Source: a virus
Taxonomy: Duplodnaviria > Caudoviricetes
Virus record (IMG/VR): IMGVR_UViG_3300034155_000027
Span: 1 to 64,000 of that record
DNA length: 64,000 bases
Direction: 5' to 3' (one strand)
The notes beneath the pieces were generated by a model. That model was not told the origin of the DNA. It saw only the letters and a program-made list of their open reading frames with translations, and made no database searches. Every line of letters starts with the position of its first letter. The stretch's first letter is position 1. This document shows, piece by piece, positions 15,412 to 61,376 of this stretch. The position numbers and the translations under genes were made by a program.

Positions 15412-18400
15412 TTAAATTACTGTGGTTACTCCACTAGTAAATAATCCTGCAACTTGATTATAATGAACAACCAAAGGAGTGTTATTAAATCCTGATTTTT
15501 TCAAGTATACTGTAATTTGAATTTTTGTTCGTAATTCTTGATAAACAACACTATTATTAACGTCTTTTAATCCAACTGTTAAAATTCCTGTTGTTTGATC
15601 AATATTAATACCAATGATATTATCAATTATTATACCAAACCCATCAGTACTATCATATCCATCTAAACTTGGACAAATAGATTGAATTGCTACGCCAAAT
15701 CTAATTTGATTGTTTGTTAACGCAGAAGAATCAACAAAAGAACAATCTGCAAATTTTACAGCAGGATATCCCGCTGATGTAAAACCAGTTCCATTATCCG
15801 CTATGAATTTTTCAAAAACATTTAATAATGCATGAACAAATGTTTTTCTAATTGGGAATTCTAATACAATTGAATGTATTTCAAAATCTTGTTTAAATAA
15901 AGATCCGTCTTTATCAAGAATTTGTCCTTTACCAATAATTAAATTATTTGGTACAAAAAAATCATTTCTACCAGGATTACATGATCCTGACATTGTTTCA
16001 AAAACCTCTTCACAAACTACTGGACCAGAATCTCCACATACACCGGTTTCATCAAATAAATAAGTAGCATTATCAGCATAAGTAAATGTTGCTGGTACTA
16101 ATCTGGCCTCACTGCTAAACTGCAATAAATGATCTTTCCAATATTGAATTGGACGCACTCTAAAATCTACAGGCGCAAATGGAACAGTTGTAAATATAGG
16201 ATTTGAAGCATTTATATTTGGAACATTATTCCATCCATAATATTTAAGTTCAATAGAACTTAAATCATCAGGATCTATTATATTGTTTCCAATGTATCCA
16301 TCTAATCTGATGTAATTATTACAATCATAATATCCATCAAAACGTCCAGTTGCATTTTGAACTTCTATATCTAAATGAGTAAAACTTGATCCTACAGGAA
16401 ATGAATTTGTTACTTTAGAAATATAATCGGATAATAAATCAATATCATTACTTGTAATATACCCATCACCATCTACATCTGCTCTTAAAATTTCTAGAGT
16501 TGTAAATGTACCATCTAAAATTGCTTGCTGTGTCGAGTTTAAAGAAAGTGATTGGTTTATTAATTCTGAAGCTCTGTGTAAATCAGTAGAATCAATTACA
16601 CCATCTCCGTTTACATCTCCATACCCATCCGTACAAAGACGTACTTTTGTTATTTTATATCCAGTACCAGCACAATCATCATTTGGTATAAGTTTGCTTC
16701 CAACTAATTGTTGTGAAATTAAATCAGGATTTGGATTGATTACTGTAAATATATTTGTGTTTACTAAACCAGGATAAAGTTGAGTTCCATAAATTACAAC
16801 ATTGTTTTTTGCATTAATATCTCTAGCACATCCAATTATTAATGGTTCTGAAGAAGCTTGTAATTCTACTAATGTAGTTGTTGTTGCAAAACTAAAACTT
16901 GGTTCATATTTCTGTCTAGCAAATACAGGGTTTCCAGTTCTTTCGTCTTGTTCTTGTTGAGACTGTTCTCTAATAGCTGATATAATTCCAGTATTTAATG
17001 TATTTTGACCAGTATCAGAAAACGGTAATTGATCCATTGAAAAATCAACCAAAGCACCAATATTATTAATATTAGTTTTTTGAATTTCTATACCTTTACC
17101 ATCATCATATGCAAAACCATCTGCAATTTTAGCTGTATCAGACCAAACTTGATACCACAAATCTTCTTCTGGTACATCTGTCCAAACACTAGCAAATACT
17201 GAAAAACGATCATCTGTAGTTTGACTATTTCCAATACCAGTAAATAACGTTCCAATACTAGCATCTCCGGCTCTACCAATTGAAATTGCATAATACTTAC
17301 CAACAACAATTACTGGATTTGCTGAGTTTCCTAATAAAGAACTGTTAAAAACAAAATCAATTGGCTGTAATACATCGGTTAATACATATCCTTGATCTTC
17401 TAAATCAGATTGATCAATACTGAATTGTGTTAATGGCTCAGCCTTAGGATCAAATTCAATAGCTAATTCTGGAATTAATTCACTTGCACAAGCTACTGTT
17501 GATTGTAATTCGTATACACTTACAATTAATTCTCCGCTCCAATCATATTTATTAATTAAATCTACTTCTTCATCTTTTCTTACACCTAATAATAATGTTA
17601 TCTTTTGAATATTATTTGTTTTTGCAATAAATTTTTCAGCTATCCTTGTAGTAATATCATTTATTTCTAATTCAAAATCTCTTTTTACTGTAGTATTTAT
17701 ATGTAAATCATCTACACTATATTCATCACCAATTCCTGACTGAATTGATTGTTTTAAAGTAATTATAGGATCTTCATTTTCTGTTGTTAAAGATATTTTA
17801 AAATCTCTAAAGAACAGGTTTGGTTCAACGTCTTGTGCAATCATAATTGCATCACGAGACAATTGATAACTAGATGTTTCTCTTAATAATATTCTACCAC
17901 CCAAATCTCTAGAACAATTACTGTTACCAAGAAAATCATTACAATAAACACAAAGTAATTTAGCATAATGTTTTTTAGTTACTTGTTTTTCTTTTTTATA
18001 GAAATAAAACCTATCGTATTGTAAATTTCCTTGAAAATCTAAACCTATAATTAATACTTTAGTGCTTAACCTTCCACCAACAGTTGAAATACCACGAATG
18101 TCAGAATCAGTTAATTCAACTTCAATTTGATTACCTAAAGAAGTATCTGTAGTAGATGTAAGTGGTCTTAATCCAGTTCCATCAAAATCATTTGATGCAA
18201 TTAATACTAATTGATCTGGGAATAAATTATCAGAATCAAATAATATTTTTTGAGTAAATGAAGATGGTAGTACACCAGATCCAAAATGATTCTGAATAAT
18301 AGAAGCATCAATATTCAAGTTTCTATCTTGCTCTACTACCATATCAACTTGATCAACACGCTGACCATCATACCAATGATTATGTATTTGAGATATTGAT

Positions 18401-18414
18401 TTTCTAGTTGTCAT
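15412..18414 (-). CDS. Virion/baseplate-associated structural protein with a dockerin-like duplicated Ca-binding loop
   Basis: GDVNGDGVIDSTDL and ADVDGDGYITSNDI; lies downstream of the wedge genes; 5 DGY. Confidence 0.55.
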   Translation of the reverse strand: MTTRKSISQIHNHWYDGQRVDQVDMVVEQDRNLNIDASIIQNHFGSGVLPSSFTQKILFDSDNLFPDQLVLIASNDFDGTGLRPLTSTTDTSLGNQIEVELTDSDIRGISTVGGRLSTKVLIIGLDFQGNLQYDRFYFYKKEKQVTKKHYAKLLCVYCNDFLGNSNCSRDLGGRILLRETSSYQLSRDAIMIAQDVEPNLFFRDFKISLTTENEDPIITLKQSIQSGIGDEYSVDDLHINTTVKRDFELEINDITTRIAEKFIAKTNNIQKITLLLGVRKDEEVDLINKYDWSGELIVSVYELQSTVACASELIPELAIEFDPKAEPLTQFSIDQSDLEDQGYVLTDVLQPIDFVFNSSLLGNSANPVIVVGKYYAISIGRAGDASIGTLFTGIGNSQTTDDRFSVFASVWTDVPEEDLWYQVWSDTAKIADGFAYDDGKGIEIQKTNINNIGALVDFSMDQLPFSDTGQNTLNTGIISAIREQSQQEQDERTGNPVFARQKYEPSFSFATTTTLVELQASSEPLIIGCARDINAKNNVVIYGTQLYPGLVNTNIFTVINPNPDLISQQLVGSKLIPNDDCAGTGYKITKVRLCTDGYGDVNGDGVIDSTDLHRASELINQSLSLNSTQQAILDGTFTTLEILRADVDGDGYITSNDIDLLSDYISKVTNSFPVGSSFTHLDIEVQNATGRFDGYYDCNNYIRLDGYIGNNIIDPDDLSSIELKYYGWNNVPNINASNPIFTTVPFAPVDFRVRPIQYWKDHLLQFSSEARLVPATFTYADNATYLFDETGVCGDSGPVVCEEVFETMSGSCNPGRNDFFVPNNLIIGKGQILDKDGSLFKQDFEIHSIVLEFPIRKTFVHALLNVFEKFIADNGTGFTSAGYPAVKFADCSFVDSSALTNNQIRFGVAIQSICPSLDGYDSTDGFGIIIDNIIGINIDQTTGILTVGLKDVNNSVVYQELRTKIQITVYLKKSGFNNTPLVVHYNQVAGLFTSGVTTVI

Positions 18415-18420
18415 ATTTTG

Positions 18421-30759: not shown

Positions 30760-31203
30760 TCAAGCCCCTTTCAAACTTTGTTTTGGAGGAGTGAATTTAT
30801 TTCCTTGATTTTCCACATATTTTATTAATGTTTCAAATTTAAAATCTCCACATGTTACTATTAAATAACTAGAACTCCATAATACTTTCTTACCCATTTT
30901 TATACTCTCTAACTTATATCTATTCCTCAATATTCTACTAGATACCGTTTTTATACTATTTATTATCTTTACCAAACTTACTCTAGGTACTAATTCCATC
31001 AATATATGTGTATAATCTTCTTCTCCATTTATCTCTATTAATTTACATTCATTCCTTCCTAATATACTTTCTACTATTTCTCTCATATCTTCTATCATGT
31101 TTTTATTTAATATCTTCTTCCTGTATTTTGTAACTAGAACCAAATGATATGTTAAACTATATACTGCATTCCCTGTACTAGAATATTTCATTACTCTATG
31201 CAT
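30760..31203 (-). CDS. tnpA: IS200-like Y1 transposase, HUH motif altered
   Basis: YHLVLVTKYRK, EEDYTHIL (expected DHxH), WSSSY, KYVENQ. Confidence 0.92.
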   Translation of the reverse strand: MHRVMKYSSTGNAVYSLTYHLVLVTKYRKKILNKNMIEDMREIVESILGRNECKLIEINGEEDYTHILMELVPRVSLVKIINSIKTVSSRILRNRYKLESIKMGKKVLWSSSYLIVTCGDFKFETLIKYVENQGNKFTPPKQSLKGA

Positions 31204-31207
31204 ATCT

Positions 31208-32416: not shown

Positions 32417-32487
32417 GAAACTACTGAGAATTCCCTTCCAAACTTTACTTGGTGGGGGTAGGTTCAACTATACCACTAAAATGGTAA
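32390..32487 (+). ncRNA. 3' part of the TnpB omega/reRNA scaffold plus flanking guide
   Basis: Hairpins GAGGTCTG-GAA-CAGACCTC and CAGTAG-GAAA-CTACTG, then the right-end hairpin and TCAA; the guide would start CTATACCACTAAAATGG. The 5' boundary is unknown. Confidence 0.6.
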
Positions 32488-33495
32488 AGATCCATATCCA
32501 GCAGATCCTGGAGGCATTCCACCAATTCCACTACTAGAACCAGGAAATGCAAATCCATAATCTGTGGAATTATCTCTTAAACCTATATCTAATATATTGT
32601 TTATGTCTTCAAATTCTTCTTCTTGTATATTTATTAATACATTAGGAGAAATTATAAAATATTGATTATATTTAAAAATACCAATATCAATATCATTTCT
32701 AAATAATTTATTAATTAAATCTTTATTTGGAGATTTATTAATATTTTCTATCTTAGCATAAGATATAATAGAAGCAGAAAATAATTTACCATTATTATCT
32801 GTAGGATATTGGGAGGCTTTTTCTTTTGAAGACCACCACCAATTATTTGATTTTAATAAATCAGAAGATTTACATTTACAATAAATTTTTTGATATGCTA
32901 CTCTAGTAAGATTATCTTCTCTATCAGATATTGGCGAATTGAAACTTGGGACATTTTGAATAGATAAATTACTATTTCCACTTGGGTTGTTACCAAAAGA
33001 ATTGGTTTGTCTTGTTAAAGATACAGAATCTAAATTATTATTATCAAGTTCTTTTGAATATTGTTTTACTGCATTATAATAAGTTTGTCTTGTTTTTTTA
33101 GATAATCCAGAACCCATTCCAAAACGATATGCTTCTGTTAATGCTTTAATTAAAGACCAACCAGAAAATAATCTAAACATAGCAATTGCCATTCCTGTGC
33201 GATCTTTTCCATGAAAACAATGAATATATGTTGGTCCATCATCTAATAAAGTTGGAATTATATTCTTTTTCAAAAATGAAATTTTAGGATCTAAACCATC
33301 TCCTAAACCTAAAATAATATGTTTAATATTTAATGCCTTGCAAAACGGATCAATCTCTTTACCTGCACGATCATCTAATGAAATTATTTTAGTTATATTA
33401 TATGTGTTTTTTAAAGTATATAAATCGTGAAAAATAGGATAAGGCTTACCTCCTCTATATAATTTTTCAGTTACTTTAGAAAATCTGGTTGGCAT
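32476..33495 (-). CDS. Cys-based tyrosine/dual-specificity phosphatase with extra C-terminal domain
   Basis: LYRGGKP, IISLD, YIHCFHGKDRTG (HCX5R). Confidence 0.85.
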   Translation of the reverse strand: MPTRFSKVTEKLYRGGKPYPIFHDLYTLKNTYNITKIISLDDRAGKEIDPFCKALNIKHIILGLGDGLDPKISFLKKNIIPTLLDDGPTYIHCFHGKDRTGMAIAMFRLFSGWSLIKALTEAYRFGMGSGLSKKTRQTYYNAVKQYSKELDNNNLDSVSLTRQTNSFGNNPSGNSNLSIQNVPSFNSPISDREDNLTRVAYQKIYCKCKSSDLLKSNNWWWSSKEKASQYPTDNNGKLFSASIISYAKIENINKSPNKDLINKLFRNDIDIGIFKYNQYFIISPNVLINIQEEEFEDINNILDIGLRDNSTDYGFAFPGSSSGIGGMPPGSAGYGSLPF

Positions 33496-33533: not shown

Positions 33534-35549
33534 TTAGATAGTTTTTGCAGCTCCTTCAGTTGATCTTAATACCAACCTTGCATTATTAGAACTATACATA
33601 TATATATTTTCAGCATCAAAATACATATTTCCATTTACTGATTTTAATCTTAATTCTCCCTCACTAACAATATCTAATCTCTGAGGTGTATGAATTTTAA
33701 TACCTTCACTATCTATTCTTATTGTATGAAAGCTTCCAGAATTCCACACCCTAATATCAACAACCCCATCTCTCATTTCATTATTATATTCTGAGAATCT
33801 TAAATCATTAGATATTGTAGATCCTCCAACCTGCATAAATAAATCACCATCTAATGTAGCTGCTATAGATTTATTAAATTTATCTCTACCAATTGCGGCC
33901 ACAATGCCACCAGCACAATCTAACCACATACTCTGTCTATCAACTGTATTTGCACCTATACTTAAAGATATAAATCCATCTAATGATAAAGTCCCGCTAC
34001 GACCACCTGCATTTGATCCTTCTCCAGATACTATAATTTCTTTAGATATTATATCTTCTACTGGTGGTACAAAATTTAATAAACTATTAGGATATCCACC
34101 AGTTCCTTTATATGGTTCTTTAAACTTATGAAGAAAAAGTACATTTGAAATATCATGAAATCCTGTACCTAATTTTATAGGATCTCCTGTTATTCTATCA
34201 GTAGCCGCTGAAAAACTCTTCAAAGATTCTTCATTGCTTTTTAACTCTACTATTCCTTGTCCATGTGGTTCTAATTGTATATCTGTATTATTTGTTACAT
34301 TCCTTATAAATGAACCACGATCTTCATCGTATTCAGCCCCTTTTAAATTAGAGAAATTTTCTTGTCTTACTAAAACGGGTATGTTTCCAGTTTCACTAGA
34401 GCTTGGTACATTAATTTTAAATTGACCTTCTTTATCAATATCTACAGAAAATCTACTTCGTGCTCTAATATAATTATCAAAATTTTCGTAATCAGGAAGC
34501 GTATCTTCTAAACCAGCTTTCCTGGCATTTAATTCAAAATGATAAGCTATACTTTTTCTTAGTTGTTCTCGCAGTTTTTGAAATACAATATTTTGATCTT
34601 CTTCAGATTTTCTAAAAGATAAAGAATCAATTAATCCGCTTGGTAAAGGATTCCTATTAATATCTAAAATATTTCCATAAATATCAACAACTGTACCAAT
34701 AACTGTTTCTAATAAAAAGTTTGGATGATCTAAGCTTAAACTTAAAATATCTGTTCTACTATCTTTTCTTTGATATGGTTTTGGTCCAGATAAATCTTCT
34801 CCAGCATATAATCTTGCCTCGTCTTTATCATTTGAAAATCTAAAATTACTAACAAATTCATAAAATATTGAATGAGCCTCTGTTAATGCCGGGTTTCTAT
34901 TTGCTGCAACGGATAAAGATGGTTCTGTTCTAGGATCTAATCCAATTGCTGTTAATCCATTATTATATGTATGGCTTGTTAACGAAGACCCAGAAACACC
35001 TCTATCATTATTAGATTCAATATCTCTTAATAATGGTCCTGTTATATTTCTATTAGCTTGCGTAAAATGTAATTCTTGATTAAATCTGGAACTATAAATT
35101 CCTTTAATTGGATCTAATTGAGAAAATTGTACAGAGTCTCCATCAATTATACCTTCTTTAGGATCAACGATATGAGAAATATCATTTTCAACTAATGTTA
35201 AATAACGTCCAGGTTTAAATTTATTAGAAAGATTAACTCTTCTTAATCCATCGTTATCATAAATTCCAGTTGTAGTATTGTTATCATAAGATAAAAATAC
35301 CCATTCATTACCCTGGGCCATTTCAACAAATATATTTGTTCCTCTTTCCGGAAAACCACCAGAAAACTGTCCTTTTGGACCTCGCCATGCAGCAGGAATT
35401 TTTACTGGAAATGTAGTATCTGATTGTCCTAATGGTAATGAAAAATATGCAATTCCAGAGTTTATATCAAAACTTCTTATAATTCCACGAACAGGAATTC
35501 CATGAACAGATCCTACATCACCTCCACCATGTGTTAAAAATTTACTCAC
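33534..35549 (-). CDS. Putative baseplate central spike (gp5/gpV-like)
   Basis: N-terminal OB-fold-like segment (RGIIRSFD...GFPERGTNIFV) and C-terminal beta-strand repeats; follows the hub gene. Confidence 0.5.
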   Translation of the reverse strand: MSKFLTHGGGDVGSVHGIPVRGIIRSFDINSGIAYFSLPLGQSDTTFPVKIPAAWRGPKGQFSGGFPERGTNIFVEMAQGNEWVFLSYDNNTTTGIYDNDGLRRVNLSNKFKPGRYLTLVENDISHIVDPKEGIIDGDSVQFSQLDPIKGIYSSRFNQELHFTQANRNITGPLLRDIESNNDRGVSGSSLTSHTYNNGLTAIGLDPRTEPSLSVAANRNPALTEAHSIFYEFVSNFRFSNDKDEARLYAGEDLSGPKPYQRKDSRTDILSLSLDHPNFLLETVIGTVVDIYGNILDINRNPLPSGLIDSLSFRKSEEDQNIVFQKLREQLRKSIAYHFELNARKAGLEDTLPDYENFDNYIRARSRFSVDIDKEGQFKINVPSSSETGNIPVLVRQENFSNLKGAEYDEDRGSFIRNVTNNTDIQLEPHGQGIVELKSNEESLKSFSAATDRITGDPIKLGTGFHDISNVLFLHKFKEPYKGTGGYPNSLLNFVPPVEDIISKEIIVSGEGSNAGGRSGTLSLDGFISLSIGANTVDRQSMWLDCAGGIVAAIGRDKFNKSIAATLDGDLFMQVGGSTISNDLRFSEYNNEMRDGVVDIRVWNSGSFHTIRIDSEGIKIHTPQRLDIVSEGELRLKSVNGNMYFDAENIYMYSSNNARLVLRSTEGAAKTI

Positions 35550-35558
35550 AAAATTCTC

Positions 35559-38500
35559 CTATCTTTCAGTTAGCCCCTGTTTTGCCGCATTTATTTTTGT
35601 ATTATCTTCTTGATCTGCTTGACTATTTCCATTGGTTTGACTTGTTGTATTTTCTTTAACTATTTCATAATCTATAAATATATCTATAACATTATTTGCT
35701 AATAAATATTTAAATTGATCTGGGTTTGACTCTCCAGTGTCTATTAATCTTGTAACCGAAATTGCAGCTGTAGATGGTCCTTGTTTATTTTCAAATGTTC
35801 CTAAATCATTTTGAGGGTGTTCTCTTCTTCTTGTTTGTTTTTGAGGATCTGATAAATCTACTTCTTCTATTATTATATCATTAGAATTAATTCCAAATGA
35901 TTTTTGTTTTGAATTTCCACTATTATCAAATGAAATTGGTATTAATCCATCACCACTATTTTGTTCTGGGTTTAATAACCAATTAAATATATTATCTGCT
36001 AAATTATACATTTTATTAGAATCTGAAGTTATACTCTTGTAATATACTATTTTTATCTTAGCTTCTTGTCTACTAAATGTTACTTTATTTAAACTGCCAC
36101 TAATAGCAAATAACATATTGCTCATTATATTTAAGTTTCGTTCACCAAATTTTCCTTGTAGTAATAAATTCATTGGTTCTGTTTCTGAAGATGTCGGATC
36201 AACAACTAATGCACCAAGAGAACGCGCAGAACCAAGCATTTGGAATCTTTCACTTCTAAACTGACCAGTAAATCCTTTTGCATTATATAATATTTTACCA
36301 ACGACATCTAACATTGTAGGAATATATTCACCAGGATTATGGCCATAACATAATCCTAATGTTGTAGATAATTTATTATAGCTAAATGAATGTTTTACTG
36401 ATTTAACATAAAATAATAAACCCCTATCTTCAATATATATAACATCTCCTGGTTGATAAAATTCATTATAACCATTAATATCTGTAGATCCTTGTAATAT
36501 ATTTTCTCTAGATTCTAATAAAATAGCAACCGCGTAAGGAGAGCATTGACTATCAGGATCTGATAAATATGGAGCTTCAATTGGTTTTGATGTTTTAAAT
36601 CCATATTGATACCACATATCATAATCAACTGCATAAGCAGACGTGATCATGTTACCATCATTTGAGGTTTTGAAATTATTAGGAATATCTATAATTCCTT
36701 TATCAATAACTCCATTAACAGTAACCATAGTAAATGGTGGTGGGTTTTCTGAAATTGTTATACTACTAATTCTATCAGGAGTAAGAATAAAGCGCCTACC
36801 AGAACCAATTCCAAGATCATCATCTGATTCATATTCCATCATATGTTCTAGGAATTGTGGTATTTCTGTTTTTCTATTTAAAAATGGAGTAACAGCTGAT
36901 TTTGCAGATGTATTAACACTCGAATATGTAAAGATTCCATCACTTGTATCGTTTTGTACATCTGGAGCATTAATTGATACACCTTCTTGTAATGAATTAA
37001 TTGCATTTTTTACAGATTTTAATAATAATTGACGCTGAGAAATAAAATTACTTAATTGATGAAATATATTTACCCTATCAGTATTACTAACTGATTGGTT
37101 TGTTAATCTTCTGAATTTATTATTACCAAAGAGTTGTGTAATTGTTGCCGCTTCACGTCCTGTTTTAATTCTTAATCTATCTCTAATTGGTTCAATGATA
37201 TCAGTTTGAGTATCAGGGGAAATGTTTCTATTAAAATTATCAATTGCTGTTGCTTGTACAGAAGGTGTAAATAATTGATGTACTTGTAAATTTTTAGATA
37301 TCGCAGATGAATAACTTCCCAACTCTTCTAACGCTTGTGTTTGCCAACTTTCTGTAAATTCTGGAGTTGTTTGAAGTAATAAATTGTGTAAATTTTGTGT
37401 TCCAATTCTTCCATCACCATGAAAACTAGTTAAAAATCCAAAATCTTCTGATGCTCCAGAACCATTTCCACCAGTTGTAAGTAAACTTACAATATCATTA
37501 TCATTTTTTGATCCTAATGCTATTGCCCTTAAACGAATTTCGTCTTCAATAATTTCAATTTGATTAAATATTCCTCTAACCTGGTTAAAATATAAATTCT
37601 CAAGGAAATCAGGAAACACTTTAATTCCTGTAGCATCCCTGTCTTTAAACATTTTATAAAATACTGTACTTGGAATTTTATTATATGCTGGTGGTCTTAC
37701 TTCAATATGTCCCTGTGTATTTGCAAATACTTCTAATCCTAATAATTTTTTAACACCAATTATTTGGTCACTAATATTTGAATATTGACTATTAAATAAT
37801 TCAATTTTTCCACCAAGCTTTCTTTCAAAGGCTTGAATATCTAGATTTTTATCATATTGATCATCAACTATAAATAAATTTACATCTTCATTTGCTTTTG
37901 TTTGCCAATATTTTCTTGCTGTATTTTTCCTCAACATCATTCTCATTTGTAATTCATCCCGCTGTTTATCAGCTGGTGTTGAACTAACATCATTTGTAGA
38001 AGATAATGTTGAACTTACTTCATTTCCAATTAAAGATAAATTTGAAGATATTGAAGAGTTAAACTCTGACTGTAATTGTGCTATTTCATTACTAAGAGCA
38101 TTAATTTTAGTTTGATAACTATCTGAACCAGATGTATCAATTGAAGACTGATCACTTCTTACTGTTGGTTTTCCTTGTTGCCCAATAGAATAAGCAGATG
38201 ATACATCAAATGATCCACCTGTTCTAAGAATCATTTCATCTTCTAATTTGGCTCTTTCATTTAATTTCTGTGTTAATCTTTGATTTGTTGATACTAAATC
38301 TAATCTTGATTCTGCTACAAATTTACCAAGAGTAGAGTTCATTTGTATTGCTTTATAAGGGACAAAATTTCCCCAAATTGTATTATTTTTCTCAATTTCA
38401 GATAATAACCCCTGAATATAAGTTATAGCAGATGGTATATTTGATGCTTCATCTTTATGGCCAAGAGAGTTTCCATTAGCAATAGCTGATGTTAAAAATG

Positions 38501-40610
38501 TTTCATAATTATATGGTTGACCAGTAACTAATAATGATAATACATTCATTATATCTTGACCAGCAAAAGGTTGATTTGTTAATAAAACACTTTTTTCATG
38601 GTCTGTTGAAGATTCTGGATATGGTCTACCAGATTTTGTTAATGTTTGTATTCCTTGCTTCCAACGATAAACCATCCCATCAGCATCGTGTAATACTCTT
38701 TTAAATTGATCAAATGATAATTCATTTGTTACATCAGAATATGCTTTCAATGAAATTGGTGTGCCTTTATTAGGTCCGCTTTTAAAGGTTGATAATCCAC
38801 TTAATAATAATTTTTGATTTTCTGGTAAAAGCGGTGGAAAATCACCTGACCCAATATCAGTAAGCGGAACTCCTGTAGACGCATCAAAACTAACATCAAA
38901 AGGTGTTAAAGGATCATATATGCTAGAATTAAAAACATCTGCAGATGGTTTAAAGTTTACTTGTCCTTTATCAAAGAAACCAGTATTGTCTTCACAAGGA
39001 ACAGAAATGGTAAATTTACCATCACTCCAAGAACCAGTAACTCCTTGTTGTCCTTTTCCAACTATTCCTGTAAATATACATGGTCCTGCAGGTTGCCCTG
39101 TAATATCAGATTTAAATTGTCTCCATAACCATTTTGGCATTCCAGGACCAACTGTACTTAATCTTTCTACATCATCAAAATCAATTCCTTTATTGTTAAA
39201 AGAATTTAATGAATGAATTTCTGTATTTATATTTTTGATAATTGTATCAAATTTTTGTCTAACACCCATTCCTGATGCAGCTTGTTGTTTAGCAAACCCT
39301 CCAGGCATCTTTTCATCTTCACCTGTTCTTGAAGACATGAAAATTGAAACTATATCCATAGGTTGGATTATATATTTTCCTTGAAAAAATAATCTCATCC
39401 TATTTCTAGCATAGTTTACTTCAATATTATTTTTATTTATCTGTTTCTGGTTTGTAGCATTTTGATCTAATAATAAAAATATATTAGATATAATTGAAAC
39501 AAATTTCTCTTTTTCTGAAGGGTTTAATTGGTTATTTTCTCTAATCGAAATTATATTATTACCATGAATAAATTCAGGTTCTATTTGTACAGACCCAGAT
39601 GAAAATATATTTCCAATAGAAGTTACACAATCTGTTAAGTTTTCAGCCTTATCTAAACCTTCTGCTGCATTTTGAATACCAGTAGAATAATTAAATATAA
39701 TTTCTCTACCTTCATCATCCATTATAGCACGAACCTTTTTAGATATAATAGAACCATTGCTAATTTTAAATGTAATTTGGCTTGCTGCTCTATTGTATCT
39801 TTCTAAAGCTAAATCGGCTTTTAATTGATCAATTTGTTTTTGTAATTCTATTTGTGTAAATTTAGCAAATGATCCTATAGAACCAGACAATAAAGGATTT
39901 GTAACATCTGACAATGCTTGATCAATATCTTTCTCAGTAATCGTCATTAAGTTATAAGGGTCTTCAATAGTTAACTGAGCATTTCCTTCACCCCAAGAAG
40001 TTGTAACAGTTGTACTAAGCCCAGAAATATTTGTTAATTCAAACGTTCCTGTACCTACACCAGATCTGTCTGAAAATGCTGAATCTAAATCGTTTACAGT
40101 CCAATTTGTTAATTCACCTGGTTGAGCATAAGATAATACTTTTCTTAATTGCTCCATTGCAGATTTTTCTTTACCGTCTAATTCAAACAAACCACTATCT
40201 AAAACATTTAATAAAGATGGTCCTAAAAATGTATTAAATCTATCAGATTCATATGTTAATTTTTCTATTTTATTTATTTTTTCATATGCTGATATTAAGG
40301 TACATTTATTTTGAAACAATCTTTTTGAAGCAGCGATTAATATTCTTTCTTTATTTTCTAATAAATCTAATCTTGAGTTTTCGCTTAAAGAAGAAAACAT
40401 TCTTTTTTTAATAATTACATAAATATCAGGTTGTTGAAATAATATAGCTGTACTTCTAGGTCTTAAATTCCTAATAAAACCATCTTCTATATAAGATCGT
40501 TCTGCGCTTTTATCAGTGCTTTCAGCGATTTTACCAAGAGAATTAGGTTTATTTTCACCCATACCAAACTGAGTGTTTATTGTATCTGTTAGTTTAGATA
40601 AAAATCCCAT
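35559..40610 (-). CDS. Putative baseplate hub (gp27/gpD-like) protein
   Basis: LEVFANTQGHIEVRPP, YQYGFK, QPGDVIYIEDRGLLFYVKSVKHSF..TTLGL; position after the tape measure and tube-initiator genes. Confidence 0.6.
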   Translation of the reverse strand: MGFLSKLTDTINTQFGMGENKPNSLGKIAESTDKSAERSYIEDGFIRNLRPRSTAILFQQPDIYVIIKKRMFSSLSENSRLDLLENKERILIAASKRLFQNKCTLISAYEKINKIEKLTYESDRFNTFLGPSLLNVLDSGLFELDGKEKSAMEQLRKVLSYAQPGELTNWTVNDLDSAFSDRSGVGTGTFELTNISGLSTTVTTSWGEGNAQLTIEDPYNLMTITEKDIDQALSDVTNPLLSGSIGSFAKFTQIELQKQIDQLKADLALERYNRAASQITFKISNGSIISKKVRAIMDDEGREIIFNYSTGIQNAAEGLDKAENLTDCVTSIGNIFSSGSVQIEPEFIHGNNIISIRENNQLNPSEKEKFVSIISNIFLLLDQNATNQKQINKNNIEVNYARNRMRLFFQGKYIIQPMDIVSIFMSSRTGEDEKMPGGFAKQQAASGMGVRQKFDTIIKNINTEIHSLNSFNNKGIDFDDVERLSTVGPGMPKWLWRQFKSDITGQPAGPCIFTGIVGKGQQGVTGSWSDGKFTISVPCEDNTGFFDKGQVNFKPSADVFNSSIYDPLTPFDVSFDASTGVPLTDIGSGDFPPLLPENQKLLLSGLSTFKSGPNKGTPISLKAYSDVTNELSFDQFKRVLHDADGMVYRWKQGIQTLTKSGRPYPESSTDHEKSVLLTNQPFAGQDIMNVLSLLVTGQPYNYETFLTSAIANGNSLGHKDEASNIPSAITYIQGLLSEIEKNNTIWGNFVPYKAIQMNSTLGKFVAESRLDLVSTNQRLTQKLNERAKLEDEMILRTGGSFDVSSAYSIGQQGKPTVRSDQSSIDTSGSDSYQTKINALSNEIAQLQSEFNSSISSNLSLIGNEVSSTLSSTNDVSSTPADKQRDELQMRMMLRKNTARKYWQTKANEDVNLFIVDDQYDKNLDIQAFERKLGGKIELFNSQYSNISDQIIGVKKLLGLEVFANTQGHIEVRPPAYNKIPSTVFYKMFKDRDATGIKVFPDFLENLYFNQVRGIFNQIEIIEDEIRLRAIALGSKNDNDIVSLLTTGGNGSGASEDFGFLTSFHGDGRIGTQNLHNLLLQTTPEFTESWQTQALEELGSYSSAISKNLQVHQLFTPSVQATAIDNFNRNISPDTQTDIIEPIRDRLRIKTGREAATITQLFGNNKFRRLTNQSVSNTDRVNIFHQLSNFISQRQLLLKSVKNAINSLQEGVSINAPDVQNDTSDGIFTYSSVNTSAKSAVTPFLNRKTEIPQFLEHMMEYESDDDLGIGSGRRFILTPDRISSITISENPPPFTMVTVNGVIDKGIIDIPNNFKTSNDGNMITSAYAVDYDMWYQYGFKTSKPIEAPYLSDPDSQCSPYAVAILLESRENILQGSTDINGYNEFYQPGDVIYIEDRGLLFYVKSVKHSFSYNKLSTTLGLCYGHNPGEYIPTMLDVVGKILYNAKGFTGQFRSERFQMLGSARSLGALVVDPTSSETEPMNLLLQGKFGERNLNIMSNMLFAISGSLNKVTFSRQEAKIKIVYYKSITSDSNKMYNLADNIFNWLLNPEQNSGDGLIPISFDNSGNSKQKSFGINSNDIIIEEVDLSDPQKQTRRREHPQNDLGTFENKQGPSTAAISVTRLIDTGESNPDQFKYLLANNVIDIFIDYEIVKENTTSQTNGNSQADQEDNTKINAAKQGLTER

Positions 40611-40613
40611 AAT

Positions 40614-41555
40614 TTAAAGTGGCCTATAACTTTGTAATAATTTGTCAATATTTTTAATTTGTGATATTGTATTTGTTACTGGTGATACACTTGGAGATTT
40701 TGTTCTTAATGTACCAAAAGAATAAGGTGTACCAAATGCAGGGTCCGAATTAGAAGGACCATTAACCGCACTTCTATGCCAAGGCATGAAATTAAGCCTC
40801 ATTCCTCGTTTTTGAGTTACTGTAAAACTAATTTCATAATCAAATAATCCCAATTTATCCGCACTTTCATCTACTGACATTTGTGTAAAAAATCCTCTAA
40901 ATACCCATCCTGACCAATACATCTCTGTTTGAAATGCTAAAGATGCTAATGTCATTCTTTGAGCTGTAGGATTGGTTGAACCAGCTTCTAAAATATTTAA
41001 AACACTATCTGATACACCAACACCAATTGCAGATCCTATAGATCCTAAAACAGATTCACCACCAATAATATTTTCTAATAAACCACCAGTAGATGTATTT
41101 TCTTCTCTAGCAGCTTCAGCTGCCTGTGCTAATACATCAAATACTATTTGTTCATTTCTATAAATATCATAAAGTACATTAATACCCTCGACACCTGAAG
41201 AACCAGTAGTTCCTCTAATAGATAAATTTCCTAATTCTTCTCCCCAATATTGAATATTATATCCACCACGAGTCCTGGTTGGTGTAGGTATATGTTTTTT
41301 ATCTGTATATTTAATGCTTTGAGGATTAATATACATTTCAATAATACCTGTTTCTGGTAAAAACCATCTAACTAAATTTCTTTTTGCTATACCTGTTCTC
41401 TCATTTGGTATTTGTGCTTGTCTAACATTCATTCCACTGGCCTGTGGGATAGTTGCTAAATCACTAAAACCAGAGGAGTTTCCTGCACTTGTTCTACCAA
41501 CATTAGTTATTGGATCAATGTATTGGTCTTCAATTTGTGAAAAAATATTACCCAT
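40614..41555 (-). CDS. Tail tube initiator / baseplate tube-like protein (gp48/gp54-like)
   Basis: MYINPQSIKY, RTRGG..QYWGEEL..LSIRGTTG, FRGFFTQMSVDE, FDYEISFTV. Confidence 0.6.
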   Translation of the reverse strand: MGNIFSQIEDQYIDPITNVGRTSAGNSSGFSDLATIPQASGMNVRQAQIPNERTGIAKRNLVRWFLPETGIIEMYINPQSIKYTDKKHIPTPTRTRGGYNIQYWGEELGNLSIRGTTGSSGVEGINVLYDIYRNEQIVFDVLAQAAEAAREENTSTGGLLENIIGGESVLGSIGSAIGVGVSDSVLNILEAGSTNPTAQRMTLASLAFQTEMYWSGWVFRGFFTQMSVDESADKLGLFDYEISFTVTQKRGMRLNFMPWHRSAVNGPSNSDPAFGTPYSFGTLRTKSPSVSPVTNTISQIKNIDKLLQSYRPL

Positions 41556-41558
41556 AAA

Positions 41559-43712
41559 TTAACCTCCAGTTCCATCACCAGTTACAGCTTGTTGTATTTC
41601 TTGTCCACGTCTTTTTGTATATACTAAATTTGCAGCGTTTGATACTTTTTGATCGAAATCTTTTAATACTATATCTATTTTTAAAGGATCTGCTCGTACA
41701 TCCATTTGAATTGGTGGAAAAGTCCCTTCATTCCACGCATTAACTGGAGTAATTTCATTTGTAATATTTCCTGCATTTTTATTTATTGGAGCTAATTCTG
41801 GTTGGATTCCTCCAATAGGAGCTATTCCAGCGCCTGTACCTGGAGGCAATCTAGCTCCAACAGATTCTTTTAAAACATCTAATGAGTTATCATTGTTTTT
41901 ACCAAAGACTTGATTTATTGAATTTTTTATTGTTTCATTTCCTTTATTTATGAAATTCATAAAATTTTCATTTTGTTTTTGTAAAATATCTTCTCTTGAT
42001 TGTGATACAAAATCTGTTGATTTTTCAGTTGGTAAAACTCCTGTAGTTCCAGATCTCCCCGCTGCATTTGTCATTGCTGTTTTAGAATCAATAGTATGTC
42101 CAATTTTTAAAGCTTGTTCTATTGCTGGTAAAGTATCTTTAATAATATCATTTGTTATTAATTGTTCTTTTTCTAACCATTGATGTAATCTCATTACTGC
42201 AGATGTAGTTCTAGATTGTTCTTCCCCACCTCTGGTTACTGCTGTTTCTAGTGTTTTAGCATCTCCTTGAGTTCCCATTGTTTGAGATAAATTACCCAAT
42301 GCACCAGATTGCATTGCCTCAAGAATTCTATAAGCCTCACGATCAGTACTAGCAACACCAGCTATTTGTGTTAAATATTGTACTTGTTTATAAAACTCAC
42401 CAGACATATCTGGGTTTTGTGCGGCTTCTTTTAATGTAATTATTTGTCCACCAAACTGTTGCTGCATAGCTTGCATTGTTTTGGATAATACTTCATCCAT
42501 ATGACCAGTTTGCATTGCATATTCCATTTGATATGCTCCAGCTAATCCTCCTGGTCCACCAGTTTGCCCTGATACAAATGACATTTTTGCTAAATCTAAT
42601 TTTTGAACTCCGGCAGTCATTCCTGTAATTACTTCTTGCATAGCCGCTGGACTAATATTACTATTTTTAAATGCTTTATCAAAAGCCTCTACAACATTTG
42701 TTGCTGCATTGGTGTTATCACCTAACATTTTAAAGCTTTTAGCAATATCAGTTACTGTAGTAGTAAATGATTCAAAACGTAATTTAGAATCACCTGCTTT
42801 ATCATATATTTTTGCTATAGCTTCATAAGCACCGGTTCCACTAGTACCTAAATTTGTATACATGTCAGATAATAGTTTTCCAACTTCTGCTTGATTTCTA
42901 ATAAACCCAGTAGCCAATTGAGAAGTTGCAACTAATTGACTAATTCCAGCTGTACCAACCTGTACATTTTCATTCAAAGCACCAGGAATTGATCCAATTG
43001 TTTTTGATAAATCCATTACTGAGCTTACTGTTTGACCAGTAGCTGAAGCAGCAGTATATGTCATATTTACCATATTCATATACTCCTGGTCCATGTTTTT
43101 AAAAGAACCATTAGATTCATTAATAACAGTATTAAAATTACCCTGAGCTGCTGCTAAATGTAAAATCTCTCTTTGTAACCCATATGCTGATGTAGCTGCT
43201 TCTGAAAAATTAGTCATCATTTCAGCAATTGGTTTAGTTACTGCTTTTGATAATAATGGTTCTACATCTTTAAATGCTTTAGATATTTGAGAACCAGCAT
43301 CATAACCTGCTGTTCCTAAAGACCCCATCCCCGTAATAGCAGAAGGAATAATATCAAACATTTTTGCACCAACCAGTGCAACTTCCGTTCCTAAAACGCC
43401 CCAACCGTGAGACATTAAATCTTGGTTATTAAGATATTTAGTTACATTATCTTCTACTGTTTGAAAAAACTGAATAGATTTCATATCTAATTTTTCAATT
43501 TTATCAAGCCAAGATCCAAAGGTTGTAGTCCCTTCTGCCATTTTTGAAATAACAGCAGTTTGTGTTTCTCCTAATTTTTTAGTAAGATCAGAAACAAGAG
43601 CTACTTTTTCACCTGCTTTAGACATTCCTTCAATATAATTACTAAGATCTGCGTCTTTTGTAATTTCTACAATTTGTTTAAGTTGGTCTAGAGTAAATGT
43701 TGTTTCAGCCAT
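41559..43712 (-). CDS. Tape measure protein
   Basis: 717 aa, Ala/Gly/Gln/Met-rich and helical, located directly after the chaperone genes. Confidence 0.7.
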   Translation of the reverse strand: MAETTFTLDQLKQIVEITKDADLSNYIEGMSKAGEKVALVSDLTKKLGETQTAVISKMAEGTTTFGSWLDKIEKLDMKSIQFFQTVEDNVTKYLNNQDLMSHGWGVLGTEVALVGAKMFDIIPSAITGMGSLGTAGYDAGSQISKAFKDVEPLLSKAVTKPIAEMMTNFSEAATSAYGLQREILHLAAAQGNFNTVINESNGSFKNMDQEYMNMVNMTYTAASATGQTVSSVMDLSKTIGSIPGALNENVQVGTAGISQLVATSQLATGFIRNQAEVGKLLSDMYTNLGTSGTGAYEAIAKIYDKAGDSKLRFESFTTTVTDIAKSFKMLGDNTNAATNVVEAFDKAFKNSNISPAAMQEVITGMTAGVQKLDLAKMSFVSGQTGGPGGLAGAYQMEYAMQTGHMDEVLSKTMQAMQQQFGGQIITLKEAAQNPDMSGEFYKQVQYLTQIAGVASTDREAYRILEAMQSGALGNLSQTMGTQGDAKTLETAVTRGGEEQSRTTSAVMRLHQWLEKEQLITNDIIKDTLPAIEQALKIGHTIDSKTAMTNAAGRSGTTGVLPTEKSTDFVSQSREDILQKQNENFMNFINKGNETIKNSINQVFGKNNDNSLDVLKESVGARLPPGTGAGIAPIGGIQPELAPINKNAGNITNEITPVNAWNEGTFPPIQMDVRADPLKIDIVLKDFDQKVSNAANLVYTKRRGQEIQQAVTGDGTGG

Positions 43713-44070
43713 TATTTAAAAGAACCTTGCGTTTTTTGCGTTTTTTAGTGTTTGGTTGTGATTTTTCTAAAAGTTCTTCATGAATTAAATTTGTTGTAGT
43801 ATCAAAATCACTAGAGGAATAATCAGGGTTTTCGTTTTTAATCATTTTTTTAGCCATTTCTGGATTAAAAAAAGATCCTATTAAAATAGCTTGGTTTCTT
43901 AATTTTTCTAATTCTATTTCTTGATTATATTCCCATGACTTATACAACCATATCTTTAAATATGGGTTAATATTCTCATAAAAAGGATCATCTGGAAGTT
44001 TACCGAAGGTTTCGACTAAATATCTAATAAATTGACTTTCAGGAAGTTTAACTACTTTTGGTAATGGTAT
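43705..44070 (-). CDS. Tail assembly chaperone C-terminal extension (GT-like frameshift partner)
   Basis: Frame open from 44070 (KVVKLPESQFIRYLVETFGKLPDDPFYENINPYLKIWLYKSW...) with no ATG/GTG/TTG until TTG at 43947; overlaps the end of 44048..44695. Confidence 0.65.
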   Translation of the reverse strand: MPLPKVVKLPESQFIRYLVETFGKLPDDPFYENINPYLKIWLYKSWEYNQEIELEKLRNQAILIGSFFNPEMAKKMIKNENPDYSSSDFDTTTNLIHEELLEKSQPNTKKRKKRKVLLNNG

Positions 44071-44695
44071 TCACCACCTCTTTTACTTCTTCAGTATTTG
44101 TTGGAGTATAACCATCTATAGTTTCGGTACTTAAAATTTGATATTGTTGAAACAAATGAGTTATTAAACTATTATCCATTTCTTGAATTAATTCTTTACG
44201 ATATTCAACCTTATCTGAATATTCTTCATTAATACAACCTAATACTAAATCTATAGATTGTCCATCGATCATAAATAAAGAATGTGCTAATACTTCTACT
44301 TTAAGCCTAAATAAACTAGTAGGCGCAAAAGTAACATTACCATCTGCAGTAGTTATTCTTTCTGATGTTTCAATAACTTGGGAAACACAATTTTGTTCAA
44401 GTGTTTTTAATGTTCTTAATGTAAAAATAATTTTACCATTAATATCATCATTAATTTCAACATTTCTGGTTTTCCTTCCAATTCCAGTTAGTATTTCAAT
44501 TCTTTTTTTACCTTCTTGTAATTGTGTATTTTCTTGTTGTTGTAATTTTTCTTGAGCTTGTTGTCTTAAAAGATTTAAATCATCTTGAGTTATTTCTCTA
44601 CCAATTACTTTATTAGATTGGTTACTATCTCCAACCGTCCATTTTTTTCCAGAGTTACCTGTATTACTTTCTCCAATTGAACTATGTATTTTCAT
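44048..44695 (-). CDS. Tail assembly chaperone (G-like)
   Basis: Between the tube and tape measure genes; FTLRTLK, LAHSLFMIDG, LITHLFQQY. Confidence 0.65.
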   Translation of the reverse strand: MKIHSSIGESNTGNSGKKWTVGDSNQSNKVIGREITQDDLNLLRQQAQEKLQQQENTQLQEGKKRIEILTGIGRKTRNVEINDDINGKIIFTLRTLKTLEQNCVSQVIETSERITTADGNVTFAPTSLFRLKVEVLAHSLFMIDGQSIDLVLGCINEEYSDKVEYRKELIQEMDNSLITHLFQQYQILSTETIDGYTPTNTEEVKEVVNTITKSS

Positions 44696-44715
44696 AAATT
44701 TTTCCTTAGAAACAG

Positions 44716-44744
44716 ATCAATCCTTCGGATAAGGAAGGATTGAT
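44716..44744. terminator. 11-bp stem-loop between tube and chaperone genes (terminator/attenuator or processing site)
   Basis: ATCAATCCTTC-GGATAAG-GAAGGATTGAT; only a weak U-tract follows on the - strand. Confidence 0.55.
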
Positions 44745-44783
44745 TATACTACAACTAATTATATATCAAGGTGAAAAATTAAA

Positions 44784-45428
44784 CTAAGCTGAATCTACAA
44801 CTTTAATTAAACCAGCGGCATCCAAACCACCACGACGTCTACCAATATCTGCTTGTTTTTCAAAATAATCATTATCAATAACTTGTAATTGACGAGCAAG
44901 AGGAGCATTGGCTGCGGAATTTCCTTGTCCAATATATGAATATATATGTTCAGCTTTCCAGCTCATATCTTCAACAAGGACAAAGTTATCTGCTTGGAAT
45001 TTTTTAGCTAATTTACTTATCCAAATATTTTTAATAACTGTTGTAACAACATTATCAGCATTACCAAACCCATCAGCATCATCTTCGTCAGCTGCAAAAA
45101 TATCTAAAATTACAATATCAAATGGAATTCTCTGGGAATGTGCATGAACAAAACCACGAGAAAAGGCCGCTGCAATTCCAAGATTATCAAATCTTACACG
45201 GTTACAATTGCCAGTAATATTCGTTGATTTATCAGGAACAGAATCAATATGACCATCTGTTCCTACCTCATCAATTTCTCGAATACTTCTATCTTCATCA
45301 ATTGATAAACTTTGAATTCCTCCAATTGTGTTTCCATCAACTTGGATGATTATATTGGTACTAACCCCTGTTCTGGTAGTGTTTCTACCAGAATCTGTTA
45401 AAATTGAACCTGTGTGTGGATATACCAT
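44784..45428 (-). CDS. Tail tube protein
   Basis: IIIQVDGNTIGGIQSLSIDEDR..EVG, PFDIVI, TVIKNIWI; directly downstream of the sheath gene. Confidence 0.75.
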   Translation of the reverse strand: MVYPHTGSILTDSGRNTTRTGVSTNIIIQVDGNTIGGIQSLSIDEDRSIREIDEVGTDGHIDSVPDKSTNITGNCNRVRFDNLGIAAAFSRGFVHAHSQRIPFDIVILDIFAADEDDADGFGNADNVVTTVIKNIWISKLAKKFQADNFVLVEDMSWKAEHIYSYIGQGNSAANAPLARQLQVIDNDYFEKQADIGRRRGGLDAAGLIKVVDSA

Positions 45429-59996: not shown

Positions 59997-60014
59997 AAAA
60001 CCTTCTATATATAA

Positions 60015-61376
60015 TTAAATAACAATTTCTTCAGCGGCAGCAACCTGTACAGTAACCTCAGTAGATTGAGTGAATCTAAATAAACCTATTTCCCATTGAC
60101 TTGTTGCAAACCCACTGATAATTACAATTGCATCAAGATCTCCGTTTTCACTCCAATCCCATGTAACAGGAATTGATGCACGACCACTTACAGAACCAGC
60201 CATTGCTACACCACTAGCATCCAATAACGGATCAGATGCTGATGTTCCCCACAAAGCACGAGAATGAACTTCGTATTTTGCACTAACATCACTTTGTGCA
60301 TAAACGCTTGGTAAAATAGTAGCAACTGCTACATATTTAAACGTACGTAATACACCTAAATCATCTGTAAAAGAACAGGCGTTTTGATCAACAGGATCCA
60401 TGTCATAAATATATACGCCTTTTCCTGAAGCAAGTTGTCTTGTATAAAGTTTATCAACATAATATAATGCAGTTGGTGAACATTTACCATTTAATGTACC
60501 AGCACCAGAATCCACATCAGCATTTTTTCTATGTATCCACTCATCCCATTCATAAACCCGCTGAAGCCTTGCAGTATTCGCATCAATAACATATGAAAAA
60601 TCATATGATCCACCTTGCATAGCAAACGACTGAGGTGTAGTATAACCAGTTAATGTCATTGAATCATATGGACTAACATCAGCATAACCATCTGAGTTTG
60701 CATCAATACCTGTATCAGCAACTGATGCTTTTGCGTCTACTGTTGTTGATAATGCAATTCTATATAATTGTCCATTTAAAGCTACAGTGTTATAAACTGA
60801 GAAAATATTGTTTTCTGAAGGTGTTCTTTGTGGTGTTCGTGCTCTAATAATAATATTATTTCCAGTACGATCAAAGTTACCATGTGTTGAATCACCAAAT
60901 ATTTGTATTGGTTCTGCTGGTGCTCCAGTAAAAGTAAAATCAACAGGTATACCGGTTATCTGTTCGTAATAACATTGTTCAGTATCTCCAATATCAGAAG
61001 GATATCCTGCTAATACACTACACCATTCTTGTTTTGTATCAATATCAACATAATCAATAGTAGTTACTTCTTTCCATCCTCCAAGTGCATGTCTTTTACG
61101 AGTTGCATTATCATATGGCTCCCAACCATTTCTACAAATACCAATTTCAGATGTAATCATTTTCCAAGGAAATGGCCATCGTAATTGTCCATCAGTATTT
61201 AACCAATATGACTTATGACATTGGTAAATTGCTTTTAAACTAACCCTCGTAGTTGCACCTATATTGCCGGCTACCATTAGTTGATAAGTATGTGGTGTAG
61301 TTGTGGTATCCAATACCATTTCAGTACCAACACGAATATCATCTGCATCAGTTAAAATCGCGATTGTCATTACCAA
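60015..61376 (-). CDS. Putative virion appendage structural protein
   Basis: 453 aa, beta-rich; shares motifs with 62395..63948 and the N-terminus of 57852..59996. Confidence 0.5.
   Translation of the reverse strand: MVMTIAILTDADDIRVGTEMVLDTTTTPHTYQLMVAGNIGATTRVSLKAIYQCHKSYWLNTDGQLRWPFPWKMITSEIGICRNGWEPYDNATRKRHALGGWKEVTTIDYVDIDTKQEWCSVLAGYPSDIGDTEQCYYEQITGIPVDFTFTGAPAEPIQIFGDSTHGNFDRTGNNIIIRARTPQRTPSENNIFSVYNTVALNGQLYRIALSTTVDAKASVADTGIDANSDGYADVSPYDSMTLTGYTTPQSFAMQGGSYDFSYVIDANTARLQRVYEWDEWIHRKNADVDSGAGTLNGKCSPTALYYVDKLYTRQLASGKGVYIYDMDPVDQNACSFTDDLGVLRTFKYVAVATILPSVYAQSDVSAKYEVHSRALWGTSASDPLLDASGVAMAGSVSGRASIPVTWDWSENGDLDAIVIISGFATSQWEIGLFRFTQSTEVTVQVAAAEEIVI

Follow-up and report, generated by a model that had tools for sequence, protein, structure and literature searches.

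The tripeptide aspartate-glycine-tyrosine (DGY) is strongly over-represented in the outward-facing proteins of an uncultured huge phage, which was analysed here through a window of 64,000 nucleotides (positions 1 to 64,000 of the IMG/VR record IMGVR_UViG_3300034155_000027). It was taken from a viral contig of 131,454 bp (G000), which CheckV rates at about a quarter of the genome. A cluster of sugar genes follows the fibre genes in the window, and DGY is considered here as a candidate acceptor site of a phage-encoded glycosylation system.

Mycobacteriophages of the Che8 type reportedly glycosylate their virions with phage-encoded glycosyltransferases, and the acceptors are said to be Ser/Thr-rich C-terminal extensions of the capsid and tail-tube subunits. 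The present locus is similar in that the phage carries glycosyltransferase genes near its structural genes, and their presumed action, on virion proteins in the cytoplasm, would yield a sugar-coated particle. Unlike in the mycobacteriophage system, the capsid and tube here are without the tag, and the candidate acceptor is a Tyr in a tripeptide found on many outer proteins. The idea of virion glycosylation has also been mentioned for phage Maravista (PMC11256854).

Tyr O-glycosylation is described for surface-layer (S-layer) proteins of Paenibacillus and Thermoanaerobacter, with glycans that contain deoxy sugars (PMC2943079). In the S-layer pathway the glycan is assembled on a lipid carrier, exported, and transferred outside the membrane by a multi-pass oligosaccharyltransferase; no consensus motif for the Tyr sites is mentioned in that paper (PMC2943079). 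The S-layer case is a precedent for a glycan that is O-linked to Tyr on a prokaryotic self-assembling surface protein. The cluster in the window differs from the S-layer system in that a hydropathy scan shows no membrane-spanning proteins in it, such as a priming transferase, a transporter or flippase, or a multi-pass oligosaccharyltransferase.

Short sequons are known for other types of glycosylation, including N-x-S/T for N-linked glycans and D-(S/T)-(A/I/L/V/M/T) for general O-glycosylation in Bacteroidota. DGY is like these in having three residues, little flank information, exclusion of an adjacent Pro, exposure, and a fast gain and loss of sites while their number is maintained. It differs in its residues and in the enzyme classes involved, since the known sequons are used in the periplasm, in the endoplasmic reticulum or through GT41 enzymes. 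To our knowledge, no sequon based on Tyr has been described. Known Tyr sulfation sites (TPST, RaxST-type) favour Asp directly before the Tyr. DGY shares with them acidic and turn-forming residues near an exposed Tyr and a depletion of basic residues; however, sulfotransferase genes are sporadic in the clade and none was found in G000. The literature search gave no description of a DGY motif in phages or of Tyr glycosylation of virions.

Enrichment and selection of DGY in outer virion proteins

The virion module tested here comprises 23 minus-strand open reading frames (ORFs) between 15412 and 63948, with 15,183 amino acids (aa) in total. It contains 34 DGY versus 3.1 expected from residue frequencies. 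A first-order model expects 7.1 DGY, but this model is itself inflated by DGY. DGY is the sole outlier among all tripeptides (Poisson P 4e-13), so the excess remains significant after correction for composition, the point at which the original prediction could have failed; the second most deviant tripeptide has a P of 7e-4, which is unremarkable because about 8,000 tests give such a value. Tyr follows DG in 34 of 118 cases in the module, and the runner-up is Thr with 13. The original prediction had claimed about 34 DGY in 11 proteins, with 34 of about 93 DG dipeptides followed by Tyr. The ORF listing and translations give exactly 34 in-frame DGY over 11 minus-strand proteins between 15412 and 61376, with the same counts per ORF (5, 5, 1, 4, 1, 2, 1, 9, 3, 2 and 1), and 94 DG dipeptides in these proteins.

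The claims that DGY is missing from the inner tail and from the glycosyltransferases are also correct. The inner-tail ORFs (33534-35549, 35559-40610, 40614-41555, 41559-43712 and 44784-45428, the last of which encodes the tube) have no DGY in 3,598 aa, and their orthologues in the eight contigs compared (G000 and seven large contigs of relatives) have none apart from one DGY in one contig. The tape-measure and hub proteins and the capsid protein (G000 82325-83374) likewise have no DGY. The glycosyltransferase ORFs have zero, and a 92-aa ORF within the sugar-cluster region (11077-11355) has one. A count over the whole contig, capsid included, had been proposed and gives 43 DGY versus 6.5 expected. 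The further sites are in a protein with an SGNH domain, a 515-aa protein and a 220-aa protein that adjoins the major capsid gene. Single DGY also occur in the small ORFs 11077-11355, 123986-124582, 127963-128382 and 44048-44695, the last of which is part of the window tally. The 100 contig ORFs outside the DGY-bearing virion set, an outer class that was partly drawn up once the counts were known, contain 3 DGY versus 3.9 expected.

The enrichment is a property of the clade. DGY is the top tripeptide genome-wide in G000 and in six of the seven contigs of relatives (P 2e-13 to 8e-54); the exception is G008, with 13 DGY in the contig versus 6.9 expected. On the outward-facing tail, neck, baseplate and fibre proteins of the clade, the excess is about 6-25x chance. 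A search with the sheath gave 25 IMG/VR loci, and DGY is top-ranked in most of those with 43-73% sheath identity but is not top-ranked in the sheath surroundings of a distant group (39-40% identity). The 75 loci from a search with the fibre protein contain 978 DGY versus 69 expected, with a median ratio of 13.7. The fibre genes upstream of a GT4-type glycosyltransferase gene are 8-30x enriched in nearly all 79 loci of a scan by alignment of that enzyme, and the close relatives of G008 are among these. Sequence searches with the large DGY proteins gave no relative in deposited phages, and for most of them no Pfam or PHROG family. No consistent host emerges from the relatives of the sheath, which are binned into metagenome-assembled genomes of Bacteroidales, Chitinophagales, Hydrogenedentes, Gammaproteobacteria and Zixibacteria. 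A fibre-like protein of 739 aa in one relative (G003:C1:21213-23432) holds 15 DGY, many of which close a repeat of about 55 residues at a conserved strand end.

The motif is exact. Pooled over the seven relatives, there are 405 DGY versus 65 expected, a ratio of 6.25. The corresponding ratios for near-variants are 1.15 for DGF, 1.37 for DGW, 1.1 for DGH, 0.98 for NGY, 0.61 for EGY, 1.0 for SGY, 0.98 for DSY and 1.42 for DAY. DAY is a second over-represented tripeptide in the outer proteins of G003 and G005 (10 versus about 1.6 expected, P about 1e-5), where Ala may be tolerated at the middle position. Flank information around DGY is below 0.2 bit per position. The clear features relative to the background of the same proteins are Tyr at -1, which is enriched because of the tandem arrays, Gly or Asp at +1, and a deficit of Pro at +1 (0.18 of background). 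Basic residues are also rarer around DGY.

The signal lies in the protein and not in the DNA. The word GAYGGNTAY occurs 34 times in frame 0 of the virion-module coding DNA and 3 times in the other two coding frames. The codons for the three residues match the synonymous usage of each genome over a GC content of 31-54%, and each genome uses 6-15 different 9-mers to encode DGY. The tandem arrays that had been reported were found at 21502-21519 (two units), 29466-29483 (two units) and 49593-49619 (three units). The first is GATGGATAT repeated twice and therefore a single 9-mer, and the other two mix synonymous codons, as had been claimed for two arrays. Chance, composition or a DNA-level cause, such as a repeated 9-mer, slippage or domain duplication, could draw on the fact that GATGGATAT is the commonest DGY word of this AT-rich genome and makes up 19 of the 43 contig sites. 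Restriction to the coding frame, agreement with codon usage and the lack of flank similarity exclude such explanations, the excess persists at 54% GC, and the P values hold genome by genome; an artefact therefore has practically no chance of being the cause.

Selection is also seen at the level of single sites. In alignments of the seven enriched genomes, 58 of 115 DGY columns occur in one genome only and 4 are common to at least five. In pairwise comparisons 43-68% of DGY triples are retained. Triples taken together reach 10-25% and the remaining DG-x triples of these proteins 15-29% (P for the excess 1e-5 to 1e-23), so that DGY sites are kept 2-4x better than neighbouring triples. The earlier claim of selection at the protein level, made from the codon mixture of the arrays, is thus borne out by the in-frame restriction, the codon usage and the retention of sites.

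The sites appear to lie on the surface. In 16 sheath homologues, all 34 DGY are before residue 480, and the conserved C-terminal core, which can be aligned to distant sheaths, has none. This core is presumably the inner layer, as in contractile sheaths generally. The DGY sites of the sheath and neck proteins are D-x-x-G turns, where the sister group has DSSG, DAYG, NQYG or DEYG, and different sublineages have installed DGY at different turns of one sheath domain. The column of the conserved neck turn has DGY in 10 of 16 homologues, 11 of which form the enriched group, and the non-enriched sister group has DAYG, NQYG or DEFG there. At DGY columns other members have a gap in 22% of cases, versus 9.4% for all triples. 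The AlphaFold model of the sheath has a mean pLDDT (predicted local distance difference test score) of 56, with values below 50 at residues 131-266 around the DGY sites, and places DGY 202 between two strands. Since this model is poor, the exposure of DGY rests on the alignment evidence, which suggests indel-prone loops and hairpin turns of outward-facing parts.

Other families have comparable patterns. A loop near residue 375 of the 1751-aa outer protein has one DGY in this phage, and the array reaches up to four tandem units among homologues. The family of the 714-aa baseplate-module protein was found in 7/7 strongly enriched contigs and not in G008, and every DGY is in its C-terminal part. 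Among the widely shared families (those in at least four enriched contigs and in G008), the 714-aa virion-module protein belongs to the one with the highest DGY density, 6.3 per 1000 aa. The giant fibre or baseplate-rim protein has a weak Laminin_G_3 match and orthologues with 3-10 DGY. Orthologues of the distal fibre-like protein are present in 8/8 contigs with 2-9 DGY each. This protein holds a dockerin type I domain (PF00404, E 3e-10) at residues 598-665; two DGY are at or in the calcium-binding loops of the dockerin, and both are kept in orthologues.

Judged from these alignments and counts, DGY behaves as an exact, context-free, exposed, site-conserved and repeatedly reinvented short linear motif. 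An exact word without flank information, exposure, and site-level selection with turnover are properties of sequon-like motifs. It is highly probable that DGY is a selected surface tag that is read by something.

A conserved glycosyltransferase beside the fibre gene

The gene directly after the fibre gene encodes a protein that matches PF13439 with 31.2 bits (cut-off 28.5), and its match to PF00534 (22.1 bits) is under the cut-off of 26.4. In two lineages the enzyme is fused to a second GT-B domain, and PF00534 matches of E 1e-43 to 1e-44 were obtained for fused orthologues (G005 and G006). Its catalytic signatures in the window are an HxRK at 175-178 and an E-x7-E formed by E261 and E269. These five positions are identical in 71 of 78 aligned homologues, down to about 30% identity; five further homologues deviate through nothing more than truncation or a Q/D in place of the second Glu, and in one more distant homologue the His is replaced too. 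The nearest clusters in the Atlas protein search are almost all virus-only and carry PF00534 and PF13439. By Pfam and motif criteria, the protein is classified as a GT4-type (GT-B, retaining) glycosyltransferase, hereafter GT4.

The position of GT4 is conserved. It is found after the fibre gene in every contig that reaches that far. Among the 59 of 75 fibre-anchored loci that extend at least 5 kb past the fibre gene, GT4 is within 6.4 kb of that gene in 57 and within 1 kb in 40. The two exceptions are one phage type, and for one of them (L226) the contig carries GT4 at another place (L115). The remaining cluster genes encode a GDP-mannose 4,6-dehydratase, a DegT-type aminotransferase, four GT2 enzymes, a GT10-like enzyme, a GT11 enzyme, a CgeB-like Glyco_trans_1_2 protein and unassigned ORFs, and these genes differ between lineages. 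A link between DGY enrichment and the glycosyltransferase cluster had been proposed; of the cluster only GT4, which is clade-wide and beside the fibre gene, fits such a link, though not strictly, and most of the remainder is not conserved. Co-occurrence with the whole cluster was therefore rejected, since most of its genes are lineage-specific. The CgeB-like gene was also considered as the discriminating enzyme, being present in the strongly enriched contigs of the first eight and not in G008, and was rejected because most of the 79 GT4 loci lack it within 10 kb and are DGY-rich all the same.

A hydropathy scan, which is a crude method applied to a contig of about 25% of the genome, found no multi-pass membrane protein among the 17 cluster ORFs; one single hydrophobic stretch is in ORF 11352-12317. 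The lack of a membrane-spanning architecture is in keeping with a glycan that is built on a soluble acceptor, but any membrane steps could also be provided by the host.

The closest cultured relative found is Bacillus phage G, whose capsid protein is 51% identical. Its complete 497-kb genome has no match to the GT4 profile, and its tail module has 2 DGY versus 1.9 expected. A phage that lacks both GT4 and the tag agrees with a link between the two, as one distant comparison. G008 had been taken as a member of the clade with glycosyltransferases and no tag; this was revised, as the fibres of G008 and its close relatives are 5-17x enriched.

Features of the locus and neighbouring genes

The features of the window are collected in Table 1. 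Several further genes were noted around them. The 714-aa baseplate-module protein has 4-5 strongly hydrophobic helices in its first 220 aa, which are kept in seven orthologues, and a Cys-rich stretch. An IS200/IS605-type element lies inside the baseplate module at 30760-32416, with a Y1 transposase (PF01797, E 7e-35) and a divergently oriented TnpB/OrfB (PF01385, PF07282); one further OrfB copy is elsewhere in the G000 contig and one at the end of G007. The gene at 32476-33495 encodes a phosphatase-like protein (PF03162, E 1e-13) with an intact HC-x5-R, possibly an enzyme that is packaged or ejected. In G003 and G006 the domain stands at the C-terminal end of a larger protein.

Outside the window, a 758-aa protein (G000 71176-73452; L102:11176-13452) has a GDSL/SGNH hydrolase domain (PF13472, E 5e-11) and 3 DGY, and may be a virion-borne esterase. 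A class-V aminotransferase-like gene (G000 75687-76763; L102:15687-16763; PF00266, E 3e-25) is located in the structural region and is common to five enriched contigs. A homing-endonuclease-like gene of the LAGLIDADG/helix-turn-helix type (G000 81235-82251; L103:3235-4251) adjoins the major capsid gene (phrog_2522).

Table 1. Features of the 64,000-nucleotide window, with positions counted from its first nucleotide
Feature	Position	Strand	Remarks
Variable rest of sugar cluster	1..14180	.	Lineage-specific genes
Predicted GT4-type glycosyltransferase	14255..15367	-	Directly after fibre gene; sole clade-wide cluster member
Distal fibre-like protein, 1000 aa	15412..18414	-	5 DGY at residues 596, 650, 693, 705, 918
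Giant fibre or baseplate-rim protein, 2223 aa	18421..25092	-	5 DGY, including tandem 21502-21519
Baseplate J-like wedge protein, 1084 aa	25169..28423	-	1 DGY; PF04865 E 4e-17, phrog_6
Baseplate-module protein, 714 aa	28569..30713	-	4 DGY, including tandem 29466-29483
Inner tail set (671, 1683, 313, 717 and 214 aa), including tube	33534..45428	-	0 DGY in 3,598 aa; range also spans ORF 44048-44695, listed separately
Protein between tube gene and tape-measure region, 215 aa	44048..44695	-	1 DGY
Tail sheath, 824 aa	45485..47959	-	DGY at residues 185 and 202, in variable N-terminal part
Neck or tail-terminator-region protein, 268 aa	48073..48879	-	DGY at residue 125, in conserved turn DGYG
Outer protein, 1751 aa	48897..54152	-	9 DGY, including DGYDGYDGY 49593-49619
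Virion-module protein, 1033 aa	54695..57796	-	3 DGY
Virion-module protein, 714 aa	57852..59996	-	2 DGY
453-aa protein	60015..61376	-	1 DGY

Candidate readings of the tag

The reading preferred here is that DGY would be the acceptor site of a phage-encoded cytoplasmic protein glycosylation system. The tag would stand on hairpin turns, variable loops and chain ends of the fibres, the baseplate rim, the outer domain of the sheath, the neck and a capsid-adjacent protein. GT4 would place the first sugar on the hydroxyl of the Tyr, rather than on the Asp, of folded virion proteins, and the lineage-specific transferases encoded at 1-14180 would then extend the glycan. The sugars would be supplied through the GDP-mannose dehydratase and aminotransferase route, which suggests a glycan with fucose- or perosamine-like deoxy sugars. 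The outcome would be a glycan-coated virion. The probability that a glycan is carried by the Tyr of DGY with GT4 as the reader is estimated at roughly 0.4. For the broader statement, that a widespread clade of huge phages related to phage G coats its tail, neck and fibres with glycans at these sites via a soluble phage-specific GT4, the estimate is about 0.35.

Several points weigh against this reading. The modification of DGY is inferred and not observed, and we know of no soluble glycosyltransferase with a Tyr sequon. Among solved glycosyltransferases, GT4 matches only one by sequence, and weakly (7mi0, E 5e-4). Genes located behind a tail-fibre gene frequently encode cargo directed at the host envelope and not at the virion. 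The coupling between the tag and GT4 is not strict. The lineage of L134, L136 and L251 has an intact GT4 beside fibres with DGY at only 2.6-4.2x expected. G008 has the full cluster and two GT4 copies, yet its DGY excess is confined to two fibre genes (5x), with no enrichment around the sheath. The search for a replacement motif in the low-DGY contigs G008, L251 and L221 found none, which counts against the reading for the L251 lineage, and a loss of catalytic residues of GT4 was not seen in the low-DGY lineages. Because GT4 is practically universal in the clade, its co-occurrence with the tag amounts to about one evolutionary event and gives no independent contrast. The original prediction that DGY is the acceptor for the adjacent glycosyltransferase cluster therefore holds in part: selection at the protein level, the outward-facing location and a cluster directly after the fibre genes support it, but only GT4 of the cluster of about 15 kb is clade-wide, and the L134/L136/L251 lineage and G008 are loosely coupled.

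DGY could instead be a non-covalent docking or adhesion motif, with hairpin tips that bind an accessory or decoration protein, a host surface component or glycans, and the outer virion would thereby gain many weak binding points. The exactness, the selection with turnover, the location in loops and turns, the tandem arrays and the restriction to outer proteins fit docking equally well. Tyr, Gly and Asp are typical of binding loops, and docking has no need for GT4 and so fits the lineage with an intact GT4 and few DGY. However, a three-residue contact without flank preference is very small for specific binding across many structural contexts, no candidate partner was identified, and the linkage of GT4 to the fibre gene in 57 of 59 loci is left unexplained. 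Docking is considered unlikely. The strict preference for Tyr over Phe or Trp points to the hydroxyl group and would also suit a different covalent mark on Tyr or Asp, for instance sulfation, phosphorylation, nucleotidylation, oxidation or cross-linking, that is set by some phage or host enzyme outside the glycosyltransferases. Genes of the Sulfotransfer_3 family are present in some relatives, and a Cys-based phosphatase-like protein with an intact C-x5-R is encoded in the window (32476-33495). Three of the Sulfotransfer_3 genes were located (G005:C1:219528-220061, G005:C1:258577-258972 and G006:C1:112836-113207); one is among the DGY-rich fibre genes of G005, in a second such block, and two are inside sugar clusters. 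A sulfotransferase (PF13469) has no match in G000, G001, G003, G007, G008 and G009 and is sporadic in G005, G006, G004 and G002; five contigs gave no Fic domain, and a protein kinase domain was found in G005 alone. These other Tyr-acting enzymes fit no better than GT4, although the absence of an enzyme is weak evidence because the contigs are fragments. The Gly that is obligatory directly before the Tyr is unlike the Asp favoured at known sulfation sites, and the phosphatase domain is found elsewhere in relatives, fused to an N-terminal module, and is therefore probably unrelated to the tag. A modification of this kind is quite improbable.

The tripeptide might also be nothing more than a structural preference of the clade, a beta-hairpin turn with a packing Tyr that nothing reads. 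A D-x-x-G hairpin turn linking two strands is seen at many sites, these proteins are rich in DG-x turns with a beta-former after them (DGT at 1.86x expected), and the non-DGY states of the same columns keep D in 38%, G in 41% and Y in 16%. On the other hand, the orthologous turns of the sister group work with DSSG, DAYG or DEYG, and NGY, DGF and DGW are not enriched. A structural role gives no obvious reason for tandem arrays or for DGY at chain ends, and neither the inner proteins nor phage G nor the sheath region in the G008-like group shows the excess. A purely structural origin is accordingly given little credence.

If the glycosylation reading is true, Tyr would have its first sequon in DGY, which would also be the first minimal tag for O-glycosylation of folded cytoplasmic proteins, and a Tyr-based three-residue code read in the cytoplasm would be a new rule of glycosylation. 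Glyco-engineering could make direct use of a portable minimal tag that needs just one soluble enzyme. If the tag has another role, a selected virion-wide tripeptide code would still be unexplained biology. For the phages themselves, glycosylation at DGY would mean that glycans of their own making conceal or functionalise the outside of many of the largest phages known, which would bear on host recognition, resistance to proteases and adsorption traps, and phage ecology.

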